A DNA stretch of 5,727 nucleotides from IMG/VR virus record IMGVR_UViG_3300045988_011597; one strand, written 5' to 3'. Of the stretch, positions 1 through 5,691 are shown in pieces (position 1 is the stretch's first letter; each line of letters opens with the position of its first letter). Both the position numbers and the translations under genes were made by a program. The DNA is from a virus. The notes below the pieces were generated by a model. It did not search any database, had not been told where the DNA came from, and was given only the letters and a program-made list of their open reading frames with translations.

Positions 1-43
1 AAAAAAAAAAAAAACGCAAGCCTGATTTTCGTCAGACTCACGT
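1..43 (-). terminator. Rho-independent terminator for - strand transcripts
   Basis: The - sense RNA reads ACGUGAGUCUGA-CGAAAA-UCAGGCUUGCGU followed by 13 more U. That is a 12-bp stem (14..25 pairs with 32..43), a 6-nt loop and a U-tract at 1..13. Three stem pairs are G.U in the - sense RNA but C.A mismatches in the + sense, so the hairpin is better in the coding sense. It begins 13 nt after the stop codon of the 57..239 CDS. Confidence 0.8.
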
Positions 44-55
44 TTTTTTGCGGTT
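1..55. repeat. Direct terminal repeat copy A (identical to 5673..5727); circular-assembly overlap
   Basis: A14 followed by cgcaagcctgattttcgtcagactcacgtttttttgcggtt occurs identically at both window ends, by base-by-base comparison. Confidence 0.95.
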
Positions 56-56
56 T

Positions 57-239
57 TTACATTACTACGAATTCTTCGTGGTAGGTTTCTTCGTGCCGTT
101 TGCAGTAGGCGTCATAAAATTCTTGTTCTGTGCATGGTGCCATTTCCCTGTGCAGTTCTTCTCTGATTTCGTTGTCCATCAGGTTTACTGCTGCTTCGTA
201 GTCGATGTTGTTTCCGTTCTGGTCGATGACGTATTTCAT
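57..239 (-). CDS. Small highly acidic hypothetical protein (60 aa), accessory gene
   Basis: Product: MKYVIDQNGNNIDYEAAVNLMDNEIREELHREMAPCTEQEFYDAYCKRHEETYHEEFVVM. It has 15 D/E versus 5 K/R. The ATG at 239 has SD AAGGAG (247..252) 7 nt upstream. The 92-aa version in the ORF track (start 335) would run through the promoter at 279..307, so the shorter start is preferred. Confidence 0.7.
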   Translation of the reverse strand: MKYVIDQNGNNIDYEAAVNLMDNEIREELHREMAPCTEQEFYDAYCKRHEETYHEEFVVM

Positions 240-269
240 GGTTTTTCTCCTTTCGGTGTGTGTCTTTCT

Positions 270-301
270 TACACCTTTATTATACACCTTTTGCATACAC
301 T
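270..301 (-). promoter_or_regulatory. Operator-like direct repeats (A/G)GTGTA x3 at 13-nt periodicity overlapping the -10 and TSS of P1
   Basis: The + strand has TACACC at 270..275 and 283..288, and TACACT at 296..301. The same GGTGTA-N7-GGTGTA pair sits in identical register at P2. Confidence 0.5.
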
Positions 302-307
302 TGTCAA
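279..307 (-). promoter_or_regulatory. Consensus sigma70/sigmaA-type promoter P1 driving the acidic-protein gene
   Basis: The - strand reads TTGACA (302..307), a 17-nt spacer, then TATAAT (279..284). Both hexamers match consensus perfectly at optimal spacing, and the -10 lies about 40 nt upstream of the ATG at 239. Confidence 0.75.
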
Positions 308-324
308 CTACTTTTCGGTTGGTA

Positions 325-392
325 GGCTTGCCCATCAGACTCCCCGCCGCAGCGGCTCCGCTGTTAAGCTATTTGCGGCAAGCCGTCAGACT
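325..392. other. GC-rich structured spacer between the VP4 stop and P1, carrying terminator-related motifs
   Basis: ggcttgcc (325..332) is the reverse complement of ggcaagcc (377..384). The nested palindromes gccgc-a-gcggc and cagcgg-ct-ccgctg lie at about 345..364. tcagact follows each arm (335..341 and 386..392). Confidence 0.5.
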
Positions 393-425
393 TTGTGTCA
401 GCTGCCCCGCCTGCTTTATTTGCAT

Positions 426-1541
426 TTATATTTCTTCTCTTATCAGCTTTGTAAATTTATCTTGATTCTTTCGGTCTTTTGCGTCATAATATTCTTGCAT
501 GGTCAAGCCGGTCTGTTTGAGCTGGGCAAAGAGTGCATCGTTCGCGATTCTTCGCCGTTCGCGTTTGATGGCTTTCAGCTCTTCTGATTCGGCTTTTACT
601 ATTGTGTCTTCAATTCCCTCGCTTTCTGCTTCGGATAGTGGTGCAGCATTCGAATGTTCCAGATCAAAGAGTTTATCAAAGTATCTTGGTGGTTTGCATC
701 GTTTTCCGTTTTTCAGCTGGATTTCATCTTTTTTATAGATTTCTTCTTTGTGCTCCTCATAGTATTGCATTCCGATTGCCGGTGCTTTGCTCATCATGCA
801 TCGTTCTGGCAGCACTCCGAGTTCTTCGTAGTATTTTGCTGAGTCTTTGCCGTATATTTTTTTTGTGGTGTATCTGGCTGTGTATGCCATGTTTTTCCAT
901 TCTGCTGGTGCTATGACCACATGACCCATACCCCAGATTTTTGTTATCCAGTCTACATTGTAGTATCTGAATCCATTTTTTTGTTTGTAAACTTTGAGTT
1001 CGTCTTGTTTTATTGGTAGGTCATATACGATTGCATGATAATGCGGTCTGTGTGTCTGGCTTCCGTATTCGCCTGCCTGATAGTACATCAGTTTTCCGGT
1101 GTTTCTTTCATGGTATTCTAACCAGCGTCTTAGGCGTTTCCAAAATTTTTGCATGTCCTCATAGTTGAGTGTTAAGTTTTCTATGATGATTTCGCCTGTT
1201 TTTTTGTTAATGCCTAAACCCTGATTATAAGACCATGGTACATGTTCATTGTCGTATGTAAGTGTTAAAAACCATGCGTTTTCATGGTATGGCAGCTCCA
1301 TTTCCATCCTGTTTGCCCAGCTGCTTGCATTTTGCATTTTACAGCCTGCACAGTGTCCGCATGGTAGAATTTGCGCGTTTTCGTCTTTCAGCTTACGCAG
1401 CAGCTTTTTTTCTAGGCTTTCTTCCCAGAATGGTCCTTCAAAATTTTGCTGGTTGTTGTGTCTCTTGCCTGCCAGCAGGTATTTTTTCAGGGTCGTTATT
1501 TCGCCGTCTGCGAACCTGATCAGTGGTCTCGTGCACCCCAT
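426..1541 (-). CDS. VP4: Replication initiation protein VP4 (HUH rolling-circle endonuclease, Microviridae Rep)
   Basis: 371 aa. RCR motif I FLTLTY is at aa 91-96. HUH motif HYHAIVY was verified at 1023..1043. The catalytic double-Tyr motif YTARYTTKK was verified at 858..884. A CGHCAGC Cys cluster is at aa 61-67. SD GGGGTG lies upstream of the ATG at 1541. Confidence 0.9.
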   Translation of the reverse strand: MGCTRPLIRFADGEITTLKKYLLAGKRHNNQQNFEGPFWEESLEKKLLRKLKDENAQILPCGHCAGCKMQNASSWANRMEMELPYHENAWFLTLTYDNEHVPWSYNQGLGINKKTGEIIIENLTLNYEDMQKFWKRLRRWLEYHERNTGKLMYYQAGEYGSQTHRPHYHAIVYDLPIKQDELKVYKQKNGFRYYNVDWITKIWGMGHVVIAPAEWKNMAYTARYTTKKIYGKDSAKYYEELGVLPERCMMSKAPAIGMQYYEEHKEEIYKKDEIQLKNGKRCKPPRYFDKLFDLEHSNAAPLSEAESEGIEDTIVKAESEELKAIKRERRRIANDALFAQLKQTGLTMQEYYDAKDRKNQDKFTKLIREEI

Positions 1542-1564
1542 ATGGATGTTTCACCCCGTTCGCC

Positions 1565-1610
1565 TCAGTGGGCCCCAATAACCGCTCTTGATGTTATTGG
1601 GGCCCACTGA
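1565..1610. other. Perfect 18-bp GC-rich inverted repeat (hairpin) with 10-nt loop, between the RHH gene and VP4
   Basis: 1565..1582 (tcagtgggccccaataac) pairs without mismatch to 1593..1610 (gttattggggcccactga). The loop is cgctcttgat. On the + strand a T8 run follows at 1616..1623 after a 5-nt gap. On the - strand there is no U-run after the stem. Confidence 0.85.
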
Positions 1611-1635: not shown

Positions 1636-1845
1636 TTACTCATGGACTTTTGTTGTTTTGATGTTCCATTCATTTGCGAATGTGTAGCCTGTTACCTGTG
1701 TGCAATATGCTGCTATTGCGTCTCTGATAATGTCGCTTGTGTTCCCGCTCCATCCTCTGAGTATCATTTCATCTTTGATGGCTTCTAGTGCTGTGATTTC
1801 TCTGTCTGTGAGATTGATGTTGATTCTTTTTGTTACGTTTTTCAT
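1636..1845 (-). CDS. Ribbon-helix-helix (CopG/Arc/MetJ-like) DNA-binding protein, 69 aa
   Basis: Product starts MKNVTKRININLTDREITALEAIKDEMILRGWSGNTSDIIRDAIAAYC... It shows a beta-strand (RININL), helix A, a turn (SGNTS) and helix B (DIIRDAIAAY), which fits the RHH pattern. SD AAGGGG lies 7 nt upstream of the ATG at 1845. It has its own promoter P2. Confidence 0.7.
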   Translation of the reverse strand: MKNVTKRININLTDREITALEAIKDEMILRGWSGNTSDIIRDAIAAYCTQVTGYTFANEWNIKTTKVHE

Positions 1846-1880: not shown

Positions 1881-1899
1881 TACACCCATAATATACACC
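1881..1899 (-). promoter_or_regulatory. Operator-like direct repeats GGTGTA-N7-GGTGTA overlapping the -10 and TSS of P2
   Basis: The + strand has TACACC at 1881..1886 and 1894..1899. Spacing (13 nt) and register relative to the -10 are the same as at P1. Confidence 0.5.
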
Positions 1900-1918
1900 C
1901 CTTTTCTTTGTTTGTCAA
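1890..1918 (-). promoter_or_regulatory. Near-consensus sigma70/sigmaA-type promoter P2 driving RHH gene and probably VP4
   Basis: The - strand reads TTGACA (1913..1918), a 17-nt spacer, then TATATT (1890..1895). The -35 starts immediately after the VP2 stop codon (1919..1921). Confidence 0.7.
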
Positions 1919-2899
1919 TTATTTACGGTTTCTCGGGTCTGTTTTTCTAGCGAAGTCTGTTATGTTGTCGTAGTGGTCCATTCCGGTCATTTCGCTTTCG
2001 TTTTTGTTTCCGTTTTTGTTTCCGTATCTCTGGTTCGGTGCCAGACCTGCAAGTTTTTTGTTGCTTTCGTTTTCGTTTCGGTTGCTGCTTGTGATATTTT
2101 GCATATTTTTTGCGGATGTGCTCCCTACTTGGTTTGCCATCTGCTGCATGTTGGATGCAATTCCATATTGGTTTGTTTCTTTTGCGGTGTTGATCACTTG
2201 CATTGCGTTTTGGAGGAACTGCGCTGTGTTGTTACCGTAATCGTACATTGCTTGCATGTTTGCGGTGTGCGCTGTCGGTATGGCTGCGCTCTGCGTGTGG
2301 CTAAAGCTTTGGATGCCACTGCTTGCTGTTCCGCCGCTCGGTGCCTGACCTGCGCCGAATCCGTTGTATGCTGCAAGTACAGGGTTAAGCCCTGCTGCTT
2401 TCATGTCGGTAACGCCGCGCTGGTAACTGGTGTTGCTCATGCGTTCTTGCCATGCGCGTTGTGTTGCAGCTTCGTTTGAGTTGTAGCGCTGTGCGCTTGT
2501 CTGGCTTGCTAAGTTCAGGCCGTTGGCGAACATGTTCGAGAACATGTTCATGGTGTTTGCCATGCTCCACATTCCGCTTTGCAGGTTGTTTGCTGTCTGT
2601 GCCTGTCCTGCGTTGAATGCTCCGGCTGCTCCTGCGTTGTTTCCTGTCGGCGTTCCCATTGCTGTTTTCAGCGCGTCTACGATGCCTGATACACTGCCGG
2701 TTTTTACGCTTGCACCGCTTTCGCTGCTGCTGCCTGCGGTCGTGCTGCTCATGTTGCTGCTTGTGTCGGCTGTGCTGTTCATGCTCTGCTGTCCGCTGCT
2801 CGAACTGATGTTTTTTAACCCGCTCTGCAGCAGACTGCCGCCCACGTTGATCATTGCCGGTAAGCCGTATTGTATAAGTGCTCCTAGGATTGGATCCAT
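1919..2899 (-). CDS. VP2: Minor capsid / DNA pilot protein VP2
   Basis: 326 aa. It sits directly downstream of VP1. It has a hydrophobic N-terminus ([21 protein letters not shown]), S/T/N/Q/G/A-rich low-complexity flanks, and a conserved-looking core [20 protein letters not shown] typical of gokushovirus VP2. SD AAGGGGGTG starts right after the VP1 stop. Confidence 0.8.
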
Positions 2900-2910
2900 G
2901 TTGCACCCCC

Positions 2911-4557
2911 TTAGATTGTGTCAAGGCCCGGCACACTGTATACCGGCATCGGTCGTGTCCAGCTCTGGTCGAAGAAAAAGTTGCAGATAAACTGGTGACT
3001 GTTGCTTGACTGTACTGCAAGTGTTCTGTCGATGTTTTCCGTTCCTTCTTTGATCCAGCTGCTGGAGAGCGTCGGAAGTGTGTCGTACTTGTCTGCGTAG
3101 TGCCATGCGTCCAGAGTCTGAGCGTAGGTGCTGCGCATTTCGCTGGTTACCATGTTCGTCCTGTAGCGGTAGTCCGCCCAGGCCTCCTGATAACCGAATA
3201 CTTCTTCATCCTTTTCGGTCCCCTGTGCATAGATTTCGCGGTTAAGTACGGCCTGTTCCCCGAGGTTTGCAAGCATCGGATCATAGTAGCTAAATCGTGT
3301 GGTTCTCGTCCACATGCGCGGCAGTCCCTGCTGATAGCTGTGATCTACTCGGATTGCTGCCAGTCCCAGCACATAGCCATGCTCTGTTGCGCTGTAGGTG
3401 CACATGTTCCGGCTCATGGTCGTCATGGAGTATGCTGCAGTGTTGCCCTGCGGAGACGTGCTGTCGGTGCTGGATGTCTGAATCACCTGATTGATATTGA
3501 TCGGCAGTCGATATCCGCCGATATATTCGCTCCGGTCAAGTCGTGCGTCTGGGCTGGTTACTCCCCATGCGCCTTTCAGGATTTCTTTGTACCGCGTGCC
3601 GGTTCTTGCATCTCGTTCAAAGATGTGCTGCACTGCGATGGCTTGCCGCAGTTCGTTGATGGTTGCGCCTGCTACGTTGCTCAGGTCTGCCCATAAGTAT
3701 CCGCCGTCACCTTGTGTGCCTGCTGATGTTCGAGCGCCGATTACTTGTGTGGCTAGTTTCGGGTAGCCTGGTGTCGTGAAGCTCATGTTGTGCATGCTTC
3801 CTTGTGCATTTGCTGCTGTTGAGTTGAGATAGATGTATTGCGTTGTTGGGTATTCTTTTCCATCGGCGAAGCCCATAAAGATAGGTGCATTGCCAAGCAT
3901 CGGAATGGTTACCGGTTCGCTTGCTTTCTGCGGAGATGGCAGGCAGCTGGTGAAGTAGTCTTTGTACTTACAGACCTTCAAAGGCAAACCGCCTGCTTCT
4001 GCGTCGGTCAAGGCCGTGCCGGTGTTGCTGCCTGCGGTCGTCGTGTCGTCTTTGCTCTGTGTGACAGGCTGCTGCAGGTTTTCGTCCCTGAACCACTCGT
4101 TCCAGATTTTTGCATATGCTCTGAACGGCATACTGTTGACGCTCAGACCTTTCACGCCGGTCGGGATGCCCATATAATCCGCGATCGTGCCCACGTTCCA
4201 GCCGTTTTCCGGTGCAGTTGTCTGCGGAGTGGTGTATTCGGTTGTTTCTGCCCAGAAAGTGGAGTCGTTCTGTCCCATCAGGTTTTCGAAGTGGTTCCAC
4301 AGCAGTCGTGCCGGCACGAAGAAAAAGTAAAAGTCGATGTTTGCGTTATCCATGACAGGATAAAGCGGAGTCGCCATGCGCACCAGCGCGTTCAGGTTGA
4401 TCTTGAAAGTATCTGCAGGAAGTACCTCGTCAACGTAGATCGGTACAAGGTCGCCTTCGTTCATCGTGGTCAGCAGGTTAAAAGGCCGGTCGAATTTTGC
4501 GCGTCGGATTTCTGCATGCGGCACCTGTGCAAAGTGCTGCTCACTGTTTCTGTTCAT
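2911..4557 (-). CDS. VP1: Major capsid protein VP1 (Microviridae F-like jelly-roll capsid)
   Basis: 548 aa. The N-terminal signature is [43 protein letters not shown]...[27 protein letters not shown], characteristic of gokushovirus VP1. SD GAGGT lies 8 nt upstream of the ATG at 4557. Confidence 0.93.
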
Positions 4558-5050
4558 CTGCGTTTACCTCGTTTTTCGTCATTTTGTCGGTTCCGTTGTT
4601 CTGATCAGCCTGTGCTGCAGGATCGTTTTTCGTCGAAATGCCCATTTTTTCGAGCCATTCTTCTTCGCCTGCGGTTGCTGCCCAGTTCTGGAAGTTCATG
4701 CCGAACTTCTGCCTGATCTCCAGCGGCAGCTGGTCGAACTTTTCCCGCTGCTCGTTCATCAGGTTCAGGTATTCTGTGTACGTTTTCGGCAGTTTGGTTG
4801 TGTCGATGTAGTATCCCGGAGTTGCCAAAGCGCTTTCATCGCCTGCGGCGTATCGGCTGAGGATTGCCATTACGTCGCATTCGTCGCGGTAGCTCTGGAT
4901 TTTTTCGTAGGTGTTGACCTCTCCGACTTTTACAAGATACGGATGGCCTTTTTCGTCATATCGTTCTTTATACTCTGGTTCGAGCACGTTGCCTGCACAG
5001 TTCGGCTTTGCTTCTGGCTTCTCCTTTTCATACGGCTTGAAGATTTTCAT
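4541..5050 (-). CDS. VP3: Internal scaffolding protein VP3
   Basis: 169 aa. The ...YRDECDVMAILSRY... and ...FDQLPLEIRQKFGMNFQNW... blocks match the conserved ECDI and FDxLPxxIRxxFG pattern of Chlamydia-phage-type VP3. SD GGAGG lies 8 nt upstream. Its start overlaps the upstream gene stop as ATGA, and it overlaps the VP1 start by 17 nt. Confidence 0.8.
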   Translation of the reverse strand: MKIFKPYEKEKPEAKPNCAGNVLEPEYKERYDEKGHPYLVKVGEVNTYEKIQSYRDECDVMAILSRYAAGDESALATPGYYIDTTKLPKTYTEYLNLMNEQREKFDQLPLEIRQKFGMNFQNWAATAGEEEWLEKMGISTKNDPAAQADQNNGTDKMTKNEVNADEQKQ

Positions 5051-5325
5051 GCTTTCTTCCTCCGTGCCGGTTTTGCTGCCGGTTCCGTCATGGCTTTCTT
5101 TTCCTGCTCGATGTTGTAGACCAGTTCCGGCTGCTGCGGCATGATCTGGCCGGTTTCGGTGTCGTATTCGCCAAGCTTGTAAATGCGCTTGTCCTCGCAG
5201 TCCTGCTTTTCGGTTTCTTCGGTCAGCCAGTGGAAAGTACGCTGCGCCACTTTCGGGTTGATCACCATCAGATTGCCATATGTCCCCGCGAGTTCGTCCT
5301 TAATGCTGTAAATTTCGAGAATCAT
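5047..5325 (-). CDS. VP5: VP5-like small non-structural protein of gokushoviruses (92 aa from the ATG at 5325)
   Basis: MILEIYSIKDELAGTYGNLMVINPKVAQRTF...RIYKLGEYDTETGQI fits my recollection of the VP5/ORF5 pattern (M-x-I-F/Y-x-I-Y/F-D...A-x-R-x-F...Y-x-L-G-x-F/Y-D-x-x-T-G). AAGGAG lies 13 nt upstream of the ATG at 5325. The track start at 5367 adds 14 residues with no better RBS, so the start is uncertain. Confidence 0.6.
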   Translation of the reverse strand: MILEIYSIKDELAGTYGNLMVINPKVAQRTFHWLTEETEKQDCEDKRIYKLGEYDTETGQIMPQQPELVYNIEQEKKAMTEPAAKPARRKKA

Positions 5326-5524
5326 TTTCGTTGTTCCACTCCTTTTCGATTTGTTCATACAGTTCATCTTTGTGCCTGAGTCCTACTTTGATTGCTGCGC
5401 GTCCTGTGGTTGACAGGCTCGTTCGTTCTGCTTTTGCCCATTCGACGATTTCTGCAGCAGTCTCAGCTCCGACATAGATGTTCATCGTTGATTTAGGGTC
5501 TTCGCTTCTTCGGTATCCTTTCAC
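5300..5524 (-). CDS. Second RHH-like small protein (74 aa from the GTG at 5524; alternative ATG at 5485 gives 61 aa)
   Basis: The core MNIYVGAETAAEIVEWAKAERTSLSTTGRAAIKVGL fits a strand-helix-turn-helix RHH layout, preceded by the basic arm KGYRRSEDPKST. The GTG at 5524..5522 has SD GGGGAGGA 8 nt upstream and overlaps the TGA of the upstream basic ORF as GTGA. The 115-aa track call starts at a GTG only 1 nt from the SD, which is not credible. Confidence 0.5.
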   Translation of the reverse strand: MKGYRRSEDPKSTMNIYVGAETAAEIVEWAKAERTSLSTTGRAAIKVGLRHKDELYEQIEKEWNNENDSRNLQH

Positions 5525-5640
5525 AGCCTGATTCCTCCCCGGCTCGGCTTCGGCGAAATATTGATTTTTTTCGTCTTCTTCGCCGTGTTGGTAAAGATTT
5601 TCTTGTCGGTTTTCGGTTTTACGGTCTTTCTGTATGCCAT
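5521..5640 (-). CDS. Hidden 39-aa highly basic protein, candidate DNA-condensing/packaging protein (phiX174 J / gokushovirus VP8 analogue)
   Basis: Hand-translated product: MAYRKTVKPKTDKKIFTNTAKKTKKINISPKPSRGGIRL. It has 13 K/R and 1 D. The ATG at 5640 is preceded by the best SD in the genome, AAGGAGG (5649..5655), with an 8-nt spacer. It is the first gene after the terminator. It falls below the length of every ORF in the supplied track. Confidence 0.6.
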   Translation of the reverse strand: MAYRKTVKPKTDKKIFTNTAKKTKKINISPKPSRGGIRL

Positions 5641-5664: not shown

Positions 5665-5691
5665 ATTTTAACAAAAAAAAAAAAAACGCAA
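5665..5691 (-). promoter_or_regulatory. Weak candidate promoter for the structural operon, with the T14 tract as spacer
   Basis: The - strand reads TTGCGT (5686..5691), a 15-nt spacer (T13 + GT), then TAAAAT (5665..5670). The -35 match is poor and the spacer is short. It is listed only because no other promoter precedes the late genes. Confidence 0.2.

Follow-up and report, generated by a model that had tools for sequence, protein, structure and literature searches.

An AcrIC5-family anti-CRISPR gene in an exchangeable slot of a gokushovirus-like gut microvirus

The DNA analysed here, IMG/VR record IMGVR_UViG_3300045988_011597 (called the window throughout), is a circular microvirus genome of 5672 nt, given as 5727 bases with a 55-nt terminal redundancy, in which the minus strand carries every gene. 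We examined a short cassette that follows the replication gene Rep and encodes an acidic protein of 60 amino acids (aa); the gene is referred to as acr, for anti-CRISPR. Its carrier is a gokushovirus-like gut microvirus, and contigs identical to the window genome come from human gut metagenomes. The cassette and the element next to it consist of the following features:

279..307, minus strand: consensus sigma-70/sigma-A promoter (TTGACA at 307-302, 17-nt spacer, TATAAT at 284-279)
247..252, minus strand: Shine-Dalgarno sequence AAGGAG, 7 nt 5' of the ATG at 239-237, read directly from the sequence
57..239, minus strand: acr gene, 60 aa (MKYVIDQNGNNIDYEAAVNLMDNEIREELHREMAPCTEQEFYDAYCKRHEETYHEEFVVM), TAA stop at 59-57
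1..49, minus strand: intrinsic terminator (core stem 42-32 / 25-15, loop 31-26, 14 T at 14-1)
5665..5673, minus strand: extended -10-like element TGTTAAAAT (TGGTAAAAT in relatives), directly after the T-run, its position conserved in all relatives

The promoter, described as perfect in the original prediction, scores 12/12 and is the top site in the window; with one mismatch allowed, the pattern occurs at two sites, compared to 0.01 expected (200 shuffles). The acr message would start near 272-270. The predicted composition of the product, 15 acidic (D+E) and 5 basic (K+R) residues, was recovered upon recalculation, with an isoelectric point (pI) of 4.4. The ratio of nonsynonymous to synonymous substitution rates (dN/dS) is 0.12-0.33 among three microvirus alleles, which argues that the open reading frame (ORF) is a real gene under purifying selection. 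The 60-aa start has the ribosome-binding site and is common to the 60-aa microvirus alleles. Public gene calls (P0001, 79 aa; P0083, 92 aa; window 57-335, minus strand) run upstream through the acr promoter, and public records label the product “hypothetical protein”.

The core stem of the terminator comprises 11 bp and can be lengthened by the A-run at 49-43. Three G-U pairs form only in the RNA of the minus strand, making the structure strand-specific; the folding energy is -21 kcal/mol (z = -4.2), a value equalled by 0/200 shuffles, and relatives show a compensatory change from U-G to G-C in the stem. The claim that this is the only strong intrinsic terminator of the genome holds for the coding strand, where 49..1 is the sole terminator-like site (it is listed twice owing to the terminal redundancy). 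No terminator was found between Rep and acr, and the GC-rich spacer between them (300-430) folds no better than shuffled sequences (z = 0.05). Therefore, acr may also be read through from Rep. The terminator at 49..1 also ends Rep transcripts. The TGTTAAAAT element that comes next is the probable promoter of the following VP8-like/structural operon and would mark the downstream boundary of the acr locus.

Sequence profile and modelled fold place the 60-aa protein clearly in the AcrIC5 anti-CRISPR family. Its only significant Pfam match is PF22147 (AcrIC5), with E=2.7e-26 and 91.9 bits compared to a cut-off of 27, covering profile positions 2-53 of 53. A phmmer comparison with the crystallised Pseudomonas AcrIC5 (7YHR) gave E=1.1e-11, with 27/53 aligned residues identical (51%), and 11 of the 15 acidic positions are common to both proteins. 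The AlphaFold2 model, built with 25 homologues, has a predicted local distance difference test (pLDDT) score of 89.3 and consists of a short beta-hairpin and three helices. In a structural search of the PDB, 7YHR was the only significant match (E<0.001; template modelling (TM) score 0.88/0.90; root-mean-square deviation 1.3 Å), all others having E>3, and the top BFVD matches of the model are AcrIC5-like proteins of tailed phages. PADLOC and NCBIfam yielded no match, and PHROGs a single weak one, with function unknown there. Membership in the family is already detectable with current Pfam, which limits the surprise. Thus, the homologue search and the structural model proposed in the original prediction showed that the protein is not an orphan, and the guess of an anti-defence function was borne out at the level of family, whereas the analogy with the DNA mimics Ocr and ArdA gave way to an anti-CRISPR family.

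In Bifidobacterium, an RNA anti-CRISPR (Racr) lies 11 nt downstream of an AcrIC5 homologue, which prompted a check for one here. This candidate was rejected: there was no Rfam match downstream of acr at E<=1, CRISPR-DR families included, and the type I-C repeat handle motif ATTGAAA[CT] was not found there. The homologue loci contained no CRISPR arrays for comparison with a putative Racr. The downstream hairpin is the T-run terminator common to all genes found at this position.

The distribution of acr is sporadic. The cassette occurs after Rep in three human-gut microvirus lineages (protein identity 100%, 73% and 75%). Among 53 IMG/VR microviruses with Rep 51-100% identical to that of the window, the gene was found only in the copy of the window genome (1/53); it is absent from the other 52, with Rep 51-93% identical, including 11 genomes in which Rep is 91-93% identical. 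Two further microviruses have AcrIC5 homologues without an annotated feature: MG945373.1 (L169) from pig faeces, at 3769-3954 (69% identity), and Gokushovirus WZ-2015a, KT264799.1 (L170), from human faeces, at 3702-3902 (55%). Outside the microviruses the family is widespread. It comprises 2011 representative clusters (E<=1e-3), in which AcrIC5 frequently forms the C-terminal domain of proteins of 100-150 aa, and 241 IMG/VR viral contigs contain relatives; among the best 80 of these 241, the 79 other than the window genome have no capsid or Rep of the window clade, and most are of tailed-phage size. The nearest non-microviral relatives (55-70% identity) reside in tailed prophages, beside HTH_3 genes, and in metagenome-assembled genomes of gut Clostridia (Acutalibacteraceae, Lachnospiraceae, Oscillospiraceae and others). 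This agrees with the resemblance to proteins of Firmicutes mobile elements that had been noted from the sequence, and it gives the neighbourhoods of the homologues that the original prediction had suggested inspecting. Because the nearest relatives are in Clostridia, and because the window has sigma-A-type promoters and strong Shine-Dalgarno sites, we infer a Clostridia host for this microvirus. A homologue was also seen in GCA_964306795.1 (L008, a 229-kb contig), where P0010 (10001-10180) lies in an integrase-bearing island; its identity to the window protein is 61% in the alignment and 69% by BLASTP. Its neighbours match PilB3_N, DUF7289 and DUF7504, which we take to be archaeal families; the island may be the provirus of an archaeon living in the gut.

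The interval from Rep to VP8 (window 1-425 and 5665-5673) was compared across about 50 related gut microvirus genomes (L018-L064). In this slot, the promoter is conserved as TTGACAAGTGTAT-N6-GGTGTATAATAAAGGTGTA and, in about 30 relatives, stands upstream of different payloads; the terminator is conserved as AAAAACGTGAGgTTGACGAAAATCAGcCTTGCG, followed by 13-14 T and then TGGTAAAAT. The ORF between these signals is exchanged among about ten families, or absent. The commonest payload is an acidic 51-54-aa protein with the motif AALYDGGWR (about 16 genomes, including longer variants); the others are AcrIC5, a basic 53-aa protein, a Cys-rich 53-55-aa protein, several small ORFs and peptidase M15, the last being the only payload other than AcrIC5 with a Pfam or PHROG annotation. 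Two genomes (L022 and L026) keep the terminator without a payload, and L022 looks like a clean deletion of promoter and payload with the terminator retained. In four relatives (L030, L048, L054, L055), the slot holds a 122-136-aa peptidase M15, likely a lysis enzyme, without the TTGACA slot promoter; the slot is thus not exclusive to small acidic proteins.

Promoter and terminator thus belong to the clade's backbone, and the ORF moves without them. The original prediction saw the cassette as an autonomous, moron-like unit appended after Rep. It does have a promoter and a terminator of its own and a sporadic payload; however, movement of promoter, ORF and terminator as one unit was not borne out, since the same signals flank about ten payloads, and possible read-through from Rep further qualifies the autonomy. 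As in lambdoid morons, a single ORF lies between promoter and terminator, is sporadic in close relatives and is dispensable for the core cycle; unlike in lambdoid morons, only the coding payload, sometimes with its 5' untranslated region, is swapped. The arrangement resembles that of Mu-like Pseudomonas phages (JBD30 family), in which small acr genes are exchanged at a fixed site between conserved genes.

Several observations connect the commonest payload with AcrIC5. A tailed-phage contig (L101 2842-3180) encodes a 112-aa fusion protein with the AALYDGGWR domain N-terminal to AcrIC5, and such fusions occur in at least four representative clusters (P0156, P0229, P0144, P0137; hmmsearch E 1.6e-15 to 9e-8). 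The same domain forms the C-terminus of a 214-aa ORF directly downstream of acrIC5 in two prophages (L014 10240-10884 and L016 3833-4477; hhalign probability 95%, E=2.6e-8). These links were found by local tblastn/hmmsearch and hhalign; a word-based homologue search with this payload did not extend beyond microviruses. The two profiles, AALYDGGWR and AcrIC5, are unrelated to each other. In one microvirus (L172 2495-2960), the Cys-rich 53-aa protein is followed 3 nt later by AcrIC5, the tandem pair being served by a single slot promoter and a single terminator. We regard AALYDGGWR as a candidate new anti-CRISPR or anti-defence domain.

The acr promoter contains repeats that could serve as an operator, and a second promoter with the same repeats precedes a small gene that encodes a ribbon-helix-helix (RHH)-like protein:

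300-296, 287-283 and 274-270, minus strand: GTGTA in three direct repeats, spaced 13 nt apart, that overlap spacer, -10 and start site; candidate operator
1881..1918, minus strand: promoter of the RHH-like gene (TTGACA, 17-nt spacer, TATATT; 11/12), containing two GTGTA repeats placed in the register of the acr promoter
1636..1845, minus strand: RHH-like gene, 69 aa (KRININLT...SDIIRDAI), candidate regulator of the slot promoter resembling anti-CRISPR-associated (Aca) proteins

The window has three occurrences of GTGTA-N8-GTGTA, compared to 0.01 expected: two overlapping copies in the acr promoter and one at the promoter of the RHH-like gene. In 50 genomes, the motif is found at the same two promoters, on the coding strand only, apart from a few single extra sites within the Rep-to-VP8 interval (L019, L037, L043). 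The spacers between repeats vary among relatives and the GTGTA repeats are fixed. An CACACACC element at 261-254 (minus strand) shows partial complementarity to the repeat (GGTGT / ACACC). All genomes of the clade have a homologue of the 69-aa gene, with KR.N.NLT and SDIIR motifs invariant. The modelled protein has an extended N-terminus and two helices; its match to Pfam RHH_1 is below threshold (E=0.072), the Foldseek matches are all to RHH proteins and non-significant (E>2.7), and a search of PDB sequences with its profile found nothing. The RHH fold is thus a tentative assignment.

In MG945373.1 (L169 3694-4133) and in an independent contig (L171, 63-427), the acrIC5 homologue lies between a GTGTA promoter and the RHH-like gene, directly 5' of this candidate regulator and coupled to it translationally through an ATGA stop/start overlap, which is the classic acr-aca layout. 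A strong promoter with repeats that a small DNA-binding protein could occupy is another, possible likeness to acr-aca operons. The window differs from them in that its candidate regulator is RHH-like rather than helix-turn-helix (HTH), lies 1.4 kb away under its own promoter and occurs in all clade members whatever the slot contains. Since the gene occurs with filled and empty slots alike, the 69-aa protein would be a regulator of the clade rather than a dedicated Aca. Taken together, these observations make it moderately likely that this protein represses both GTGTA promoters.

AcrIC5 was discovered beside aca1 in Pseudomonas, and orthologues occur in Proteobacteria, Firmicutes and Actinobacteria; the Pseudomonas protein inhibits type I-C systems of both P. 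aeruginosa and Eggerthella lenta (PMC7913775). A homologue from a Bifidobacterium prophage also inhibits type I-C (PMC10651486), and one validated homologue is active across 35-55% Cas identity (PMC7913775, PMC10651486). The protein is small, highly acidic and monomeric and has been grouped with acidic Acrs that occupy the DNA-binding site (PMC10478522). AcrIC5 blocks CRISPRi, indicating that DNA binding is prevented, and in an AlphaFold 3 model the acidic protein sits on the site of Cas8c that recognises the protospacer-adjacent motif (PAM) (bioRxiv 10.1101/2025.06.06.658234). DNA mimicry is what this literature proposes for AcrIC5. Like Pseudomonas AcrIC5 (WP_089394111.1; 7YHR; PF22147), the window protein has 60 aa, a beta-hairpin and three helices, is acidic and is carried by a phage; the carrier, however, is a tailed phage or conjugative element in Pseudomonas and a 5.7-kb single-stranded DNA microvirus here.

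We conclude, with a probability of roughly 0.75, that the cassette encodes a functional AcrIC5-family anti-CRISPR carried by this gokushovirus-like microvirus. In the proposed course of events, the incoming single strand would be converted into the double-stranded replicative form, on which host RNA polymerase would use the consensus promoter to produce an early, high-level monocistronic mRNA of about 270 nt ending at the terminator; read-through from Rep may add to this message. The 60-aa acidic protein would be produced in quantity and would bind the type I-C Cascade of a Clostridia-type host, most likely at Cas8c near the PAM-recognition site, a target suggested by homology only. Cascade would be kept off the replicative form, so that Cas3 would never be recruited. 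Meanwhile, the terminator would insulate the structural operon, whose putative extended -10 element comes next. The gene occupies a dedicated slot between Rep and the structural operon, where promoter and terminator stay fixed and the payload is swapped by recombination. A bolder proposal, which we advance tentatively and at somewhat less than even odds, is that the slot as a whole is a plug-in anti-defence locus in which inhibitors are recombined between fixed signals and an RHH-type Aca represses them via the GTGTA repeats.

Several points weigh against a functional type I-C inhibitor of this kind. The Cas8c/DNA-mimic mechanism of AcrIC5 is based on CRISPRi data and on a predicted, not a solved, complex. 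Pseudomonas AcrIC5 has an adjacent aca1/HTH gene, whereas no DNA-binding gene adjoins acr in the window (Rep is upstream and the terminator downstream). The central motif is APCT in the window protein, and invariantly so in the gut clade, compared to EWTN in Pseudomonas AcrIC5. Finally, identity to the validated protein is about 50%, so that the target could have shifted. This last possibility is the only serious rival: the AcrIC5 fold and an anti-defence role would be kept, with a different CRISPR subtype or another nucleic-acid-binding defence as the target. Type I-B, for example, is common in Clostridia. The low identity, the altered central motif and the size and diversity of a family that often forms a domain of longer proteins would all be consistent with such a shift. 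We nevertheless consider it unlikely, since type I-C is inhibited by each of two validated but distant homologues, one proteobacterial and the other actinobacterial (PMC7913775, PMC10651486), and AcrIC5 was not among the type I-E inhibitors reported in the panel tested (PMC7913775).

High acidity (15/60 residues, pI 4.4), a small gene and a strong promoter would also suit a general DNA-mimic anti-restriction protein directed against type I restriction-modification or bacteriophage exclusion (BREX), and smallness, acidity, early expression and anti-defence are traits that Ocr (T7 gp0.3) and ArdA have in common with the reading proposed here. Ocr and ArdA are elongated dimers, far larger than a 60-aa monomer, and act on another target class; neither has sequence or fold similarity to the window protein, no Ocr or ArdA family appeared among its Pfam matches at E<=1, and AcrIC5 was the sole significant match in sequence and structure, which leaves an anti-restriction protein of this kind very improbable. 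Just as little weight can be given to a function within the phage cycle itself (replication, packaging or the timing of lysis, for example) with only incidental similarity to AcrIC5. The position directly after Rep and the promoter motifs common to acr and the clade-wide regulator gene are in its favour; nearly all close relatives, however, do without acr, having unrelated payloads or an empty slot, and homologues occur in the many unrelated tailed phages counted above.

The published picture of microviruses is one of very limited accessory gene repertoires and of genetic isolation from the rest of the phage gene pool, with methyltransferases as the only anti-defence candidates noted (PMC9239249). 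In the open-access literature, we found no report of anti-CRISPRs in microviruses. Their presence in several microvirus lineages and at two genome positions, the slot with fixed signals and swappable payload, and the RHH-type candidate regulator all appear to be unreported there, and all three run against the minimal-repertoire, isolated view (PMC9239249). An anti-CRISPR takes up about 5% of this 5.7-kb genome, and relatives with 55-70% identity occur in tailed phages that infect gut Clostridia. By implication, gut microviruses are under real selective pressure from CRISPR targeting of their double-stranded replicative form; the gene also provides a clue to the host, namely Clostridia with type I-C systems. 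If the plug-in proposal is true, the other payloads would be undescribed anti-CRISPR or anti-defence families, with AALYDGGWR as the strongest candidate and the Cys-rich 53-55-aa protein and several other small slot ORFs as further ones. Through guilt by association, the conserved slot opens a very compact way to new families of inhibitors, and it may serve as a minimal promoter/operator/terminator module for synthetic microvirus work.

The remaining genes of the window were assigned from the ORF list and from Pfam and PHROGs profile matches. With the 69-aa RHH-like gene (1845..1636) between Rep and VP2, the map reads as follows:

1541..426, minus strand: Rep/VP4
2899..1919, minus strand: VP2 pilot protein
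4557..2911, minus strand: VP1 capsid (Phage_F, E=1.7e-166)
5050..4541, minus strand: VP3 scaffold
5367..5047, minus strand: ORF5/VP5
5640..5521, minus strand: VP8-like basic protein, 39 aa

No near-identical phage record was found; the only matches were partial ones in VP1, from microviruses of pig and human faeces. Another RHH/Arc-like ORF, the second, encodes 74 aa (VKGYRRSEDPKSTMNIYVGAETAAEIVEWAKAERTSLSTTGRAAIKVGL...) at window 5300-5524 on the minus strand and starts with a GTG that overlaps the stop codon of the VP8-like gene (GTGA). In gene calls it is merged into a 115-aa ORF. An Arc-like repressor PHROG and the ORF56 copy-control family match it weakly, and a counterpart is present in MG945373.1. 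The gap between the RHH-like gene and Rep contains a perfect hairpin of 17 bp (CAGTGGGCCCCAATAAC / GTTATTGGGGCCCACTG; window 1561-1610), without a T-run 3' of the stem on the coding strand. Its GGGCCCC...GGGGCCC core occurs in 33/50 relatives, with compensatory changes and a near-constant loop ATCAAGAG, and KT264799.1 has a similar hairpin after VP4. This hairpin may be the replication origin or the Rep nick site.

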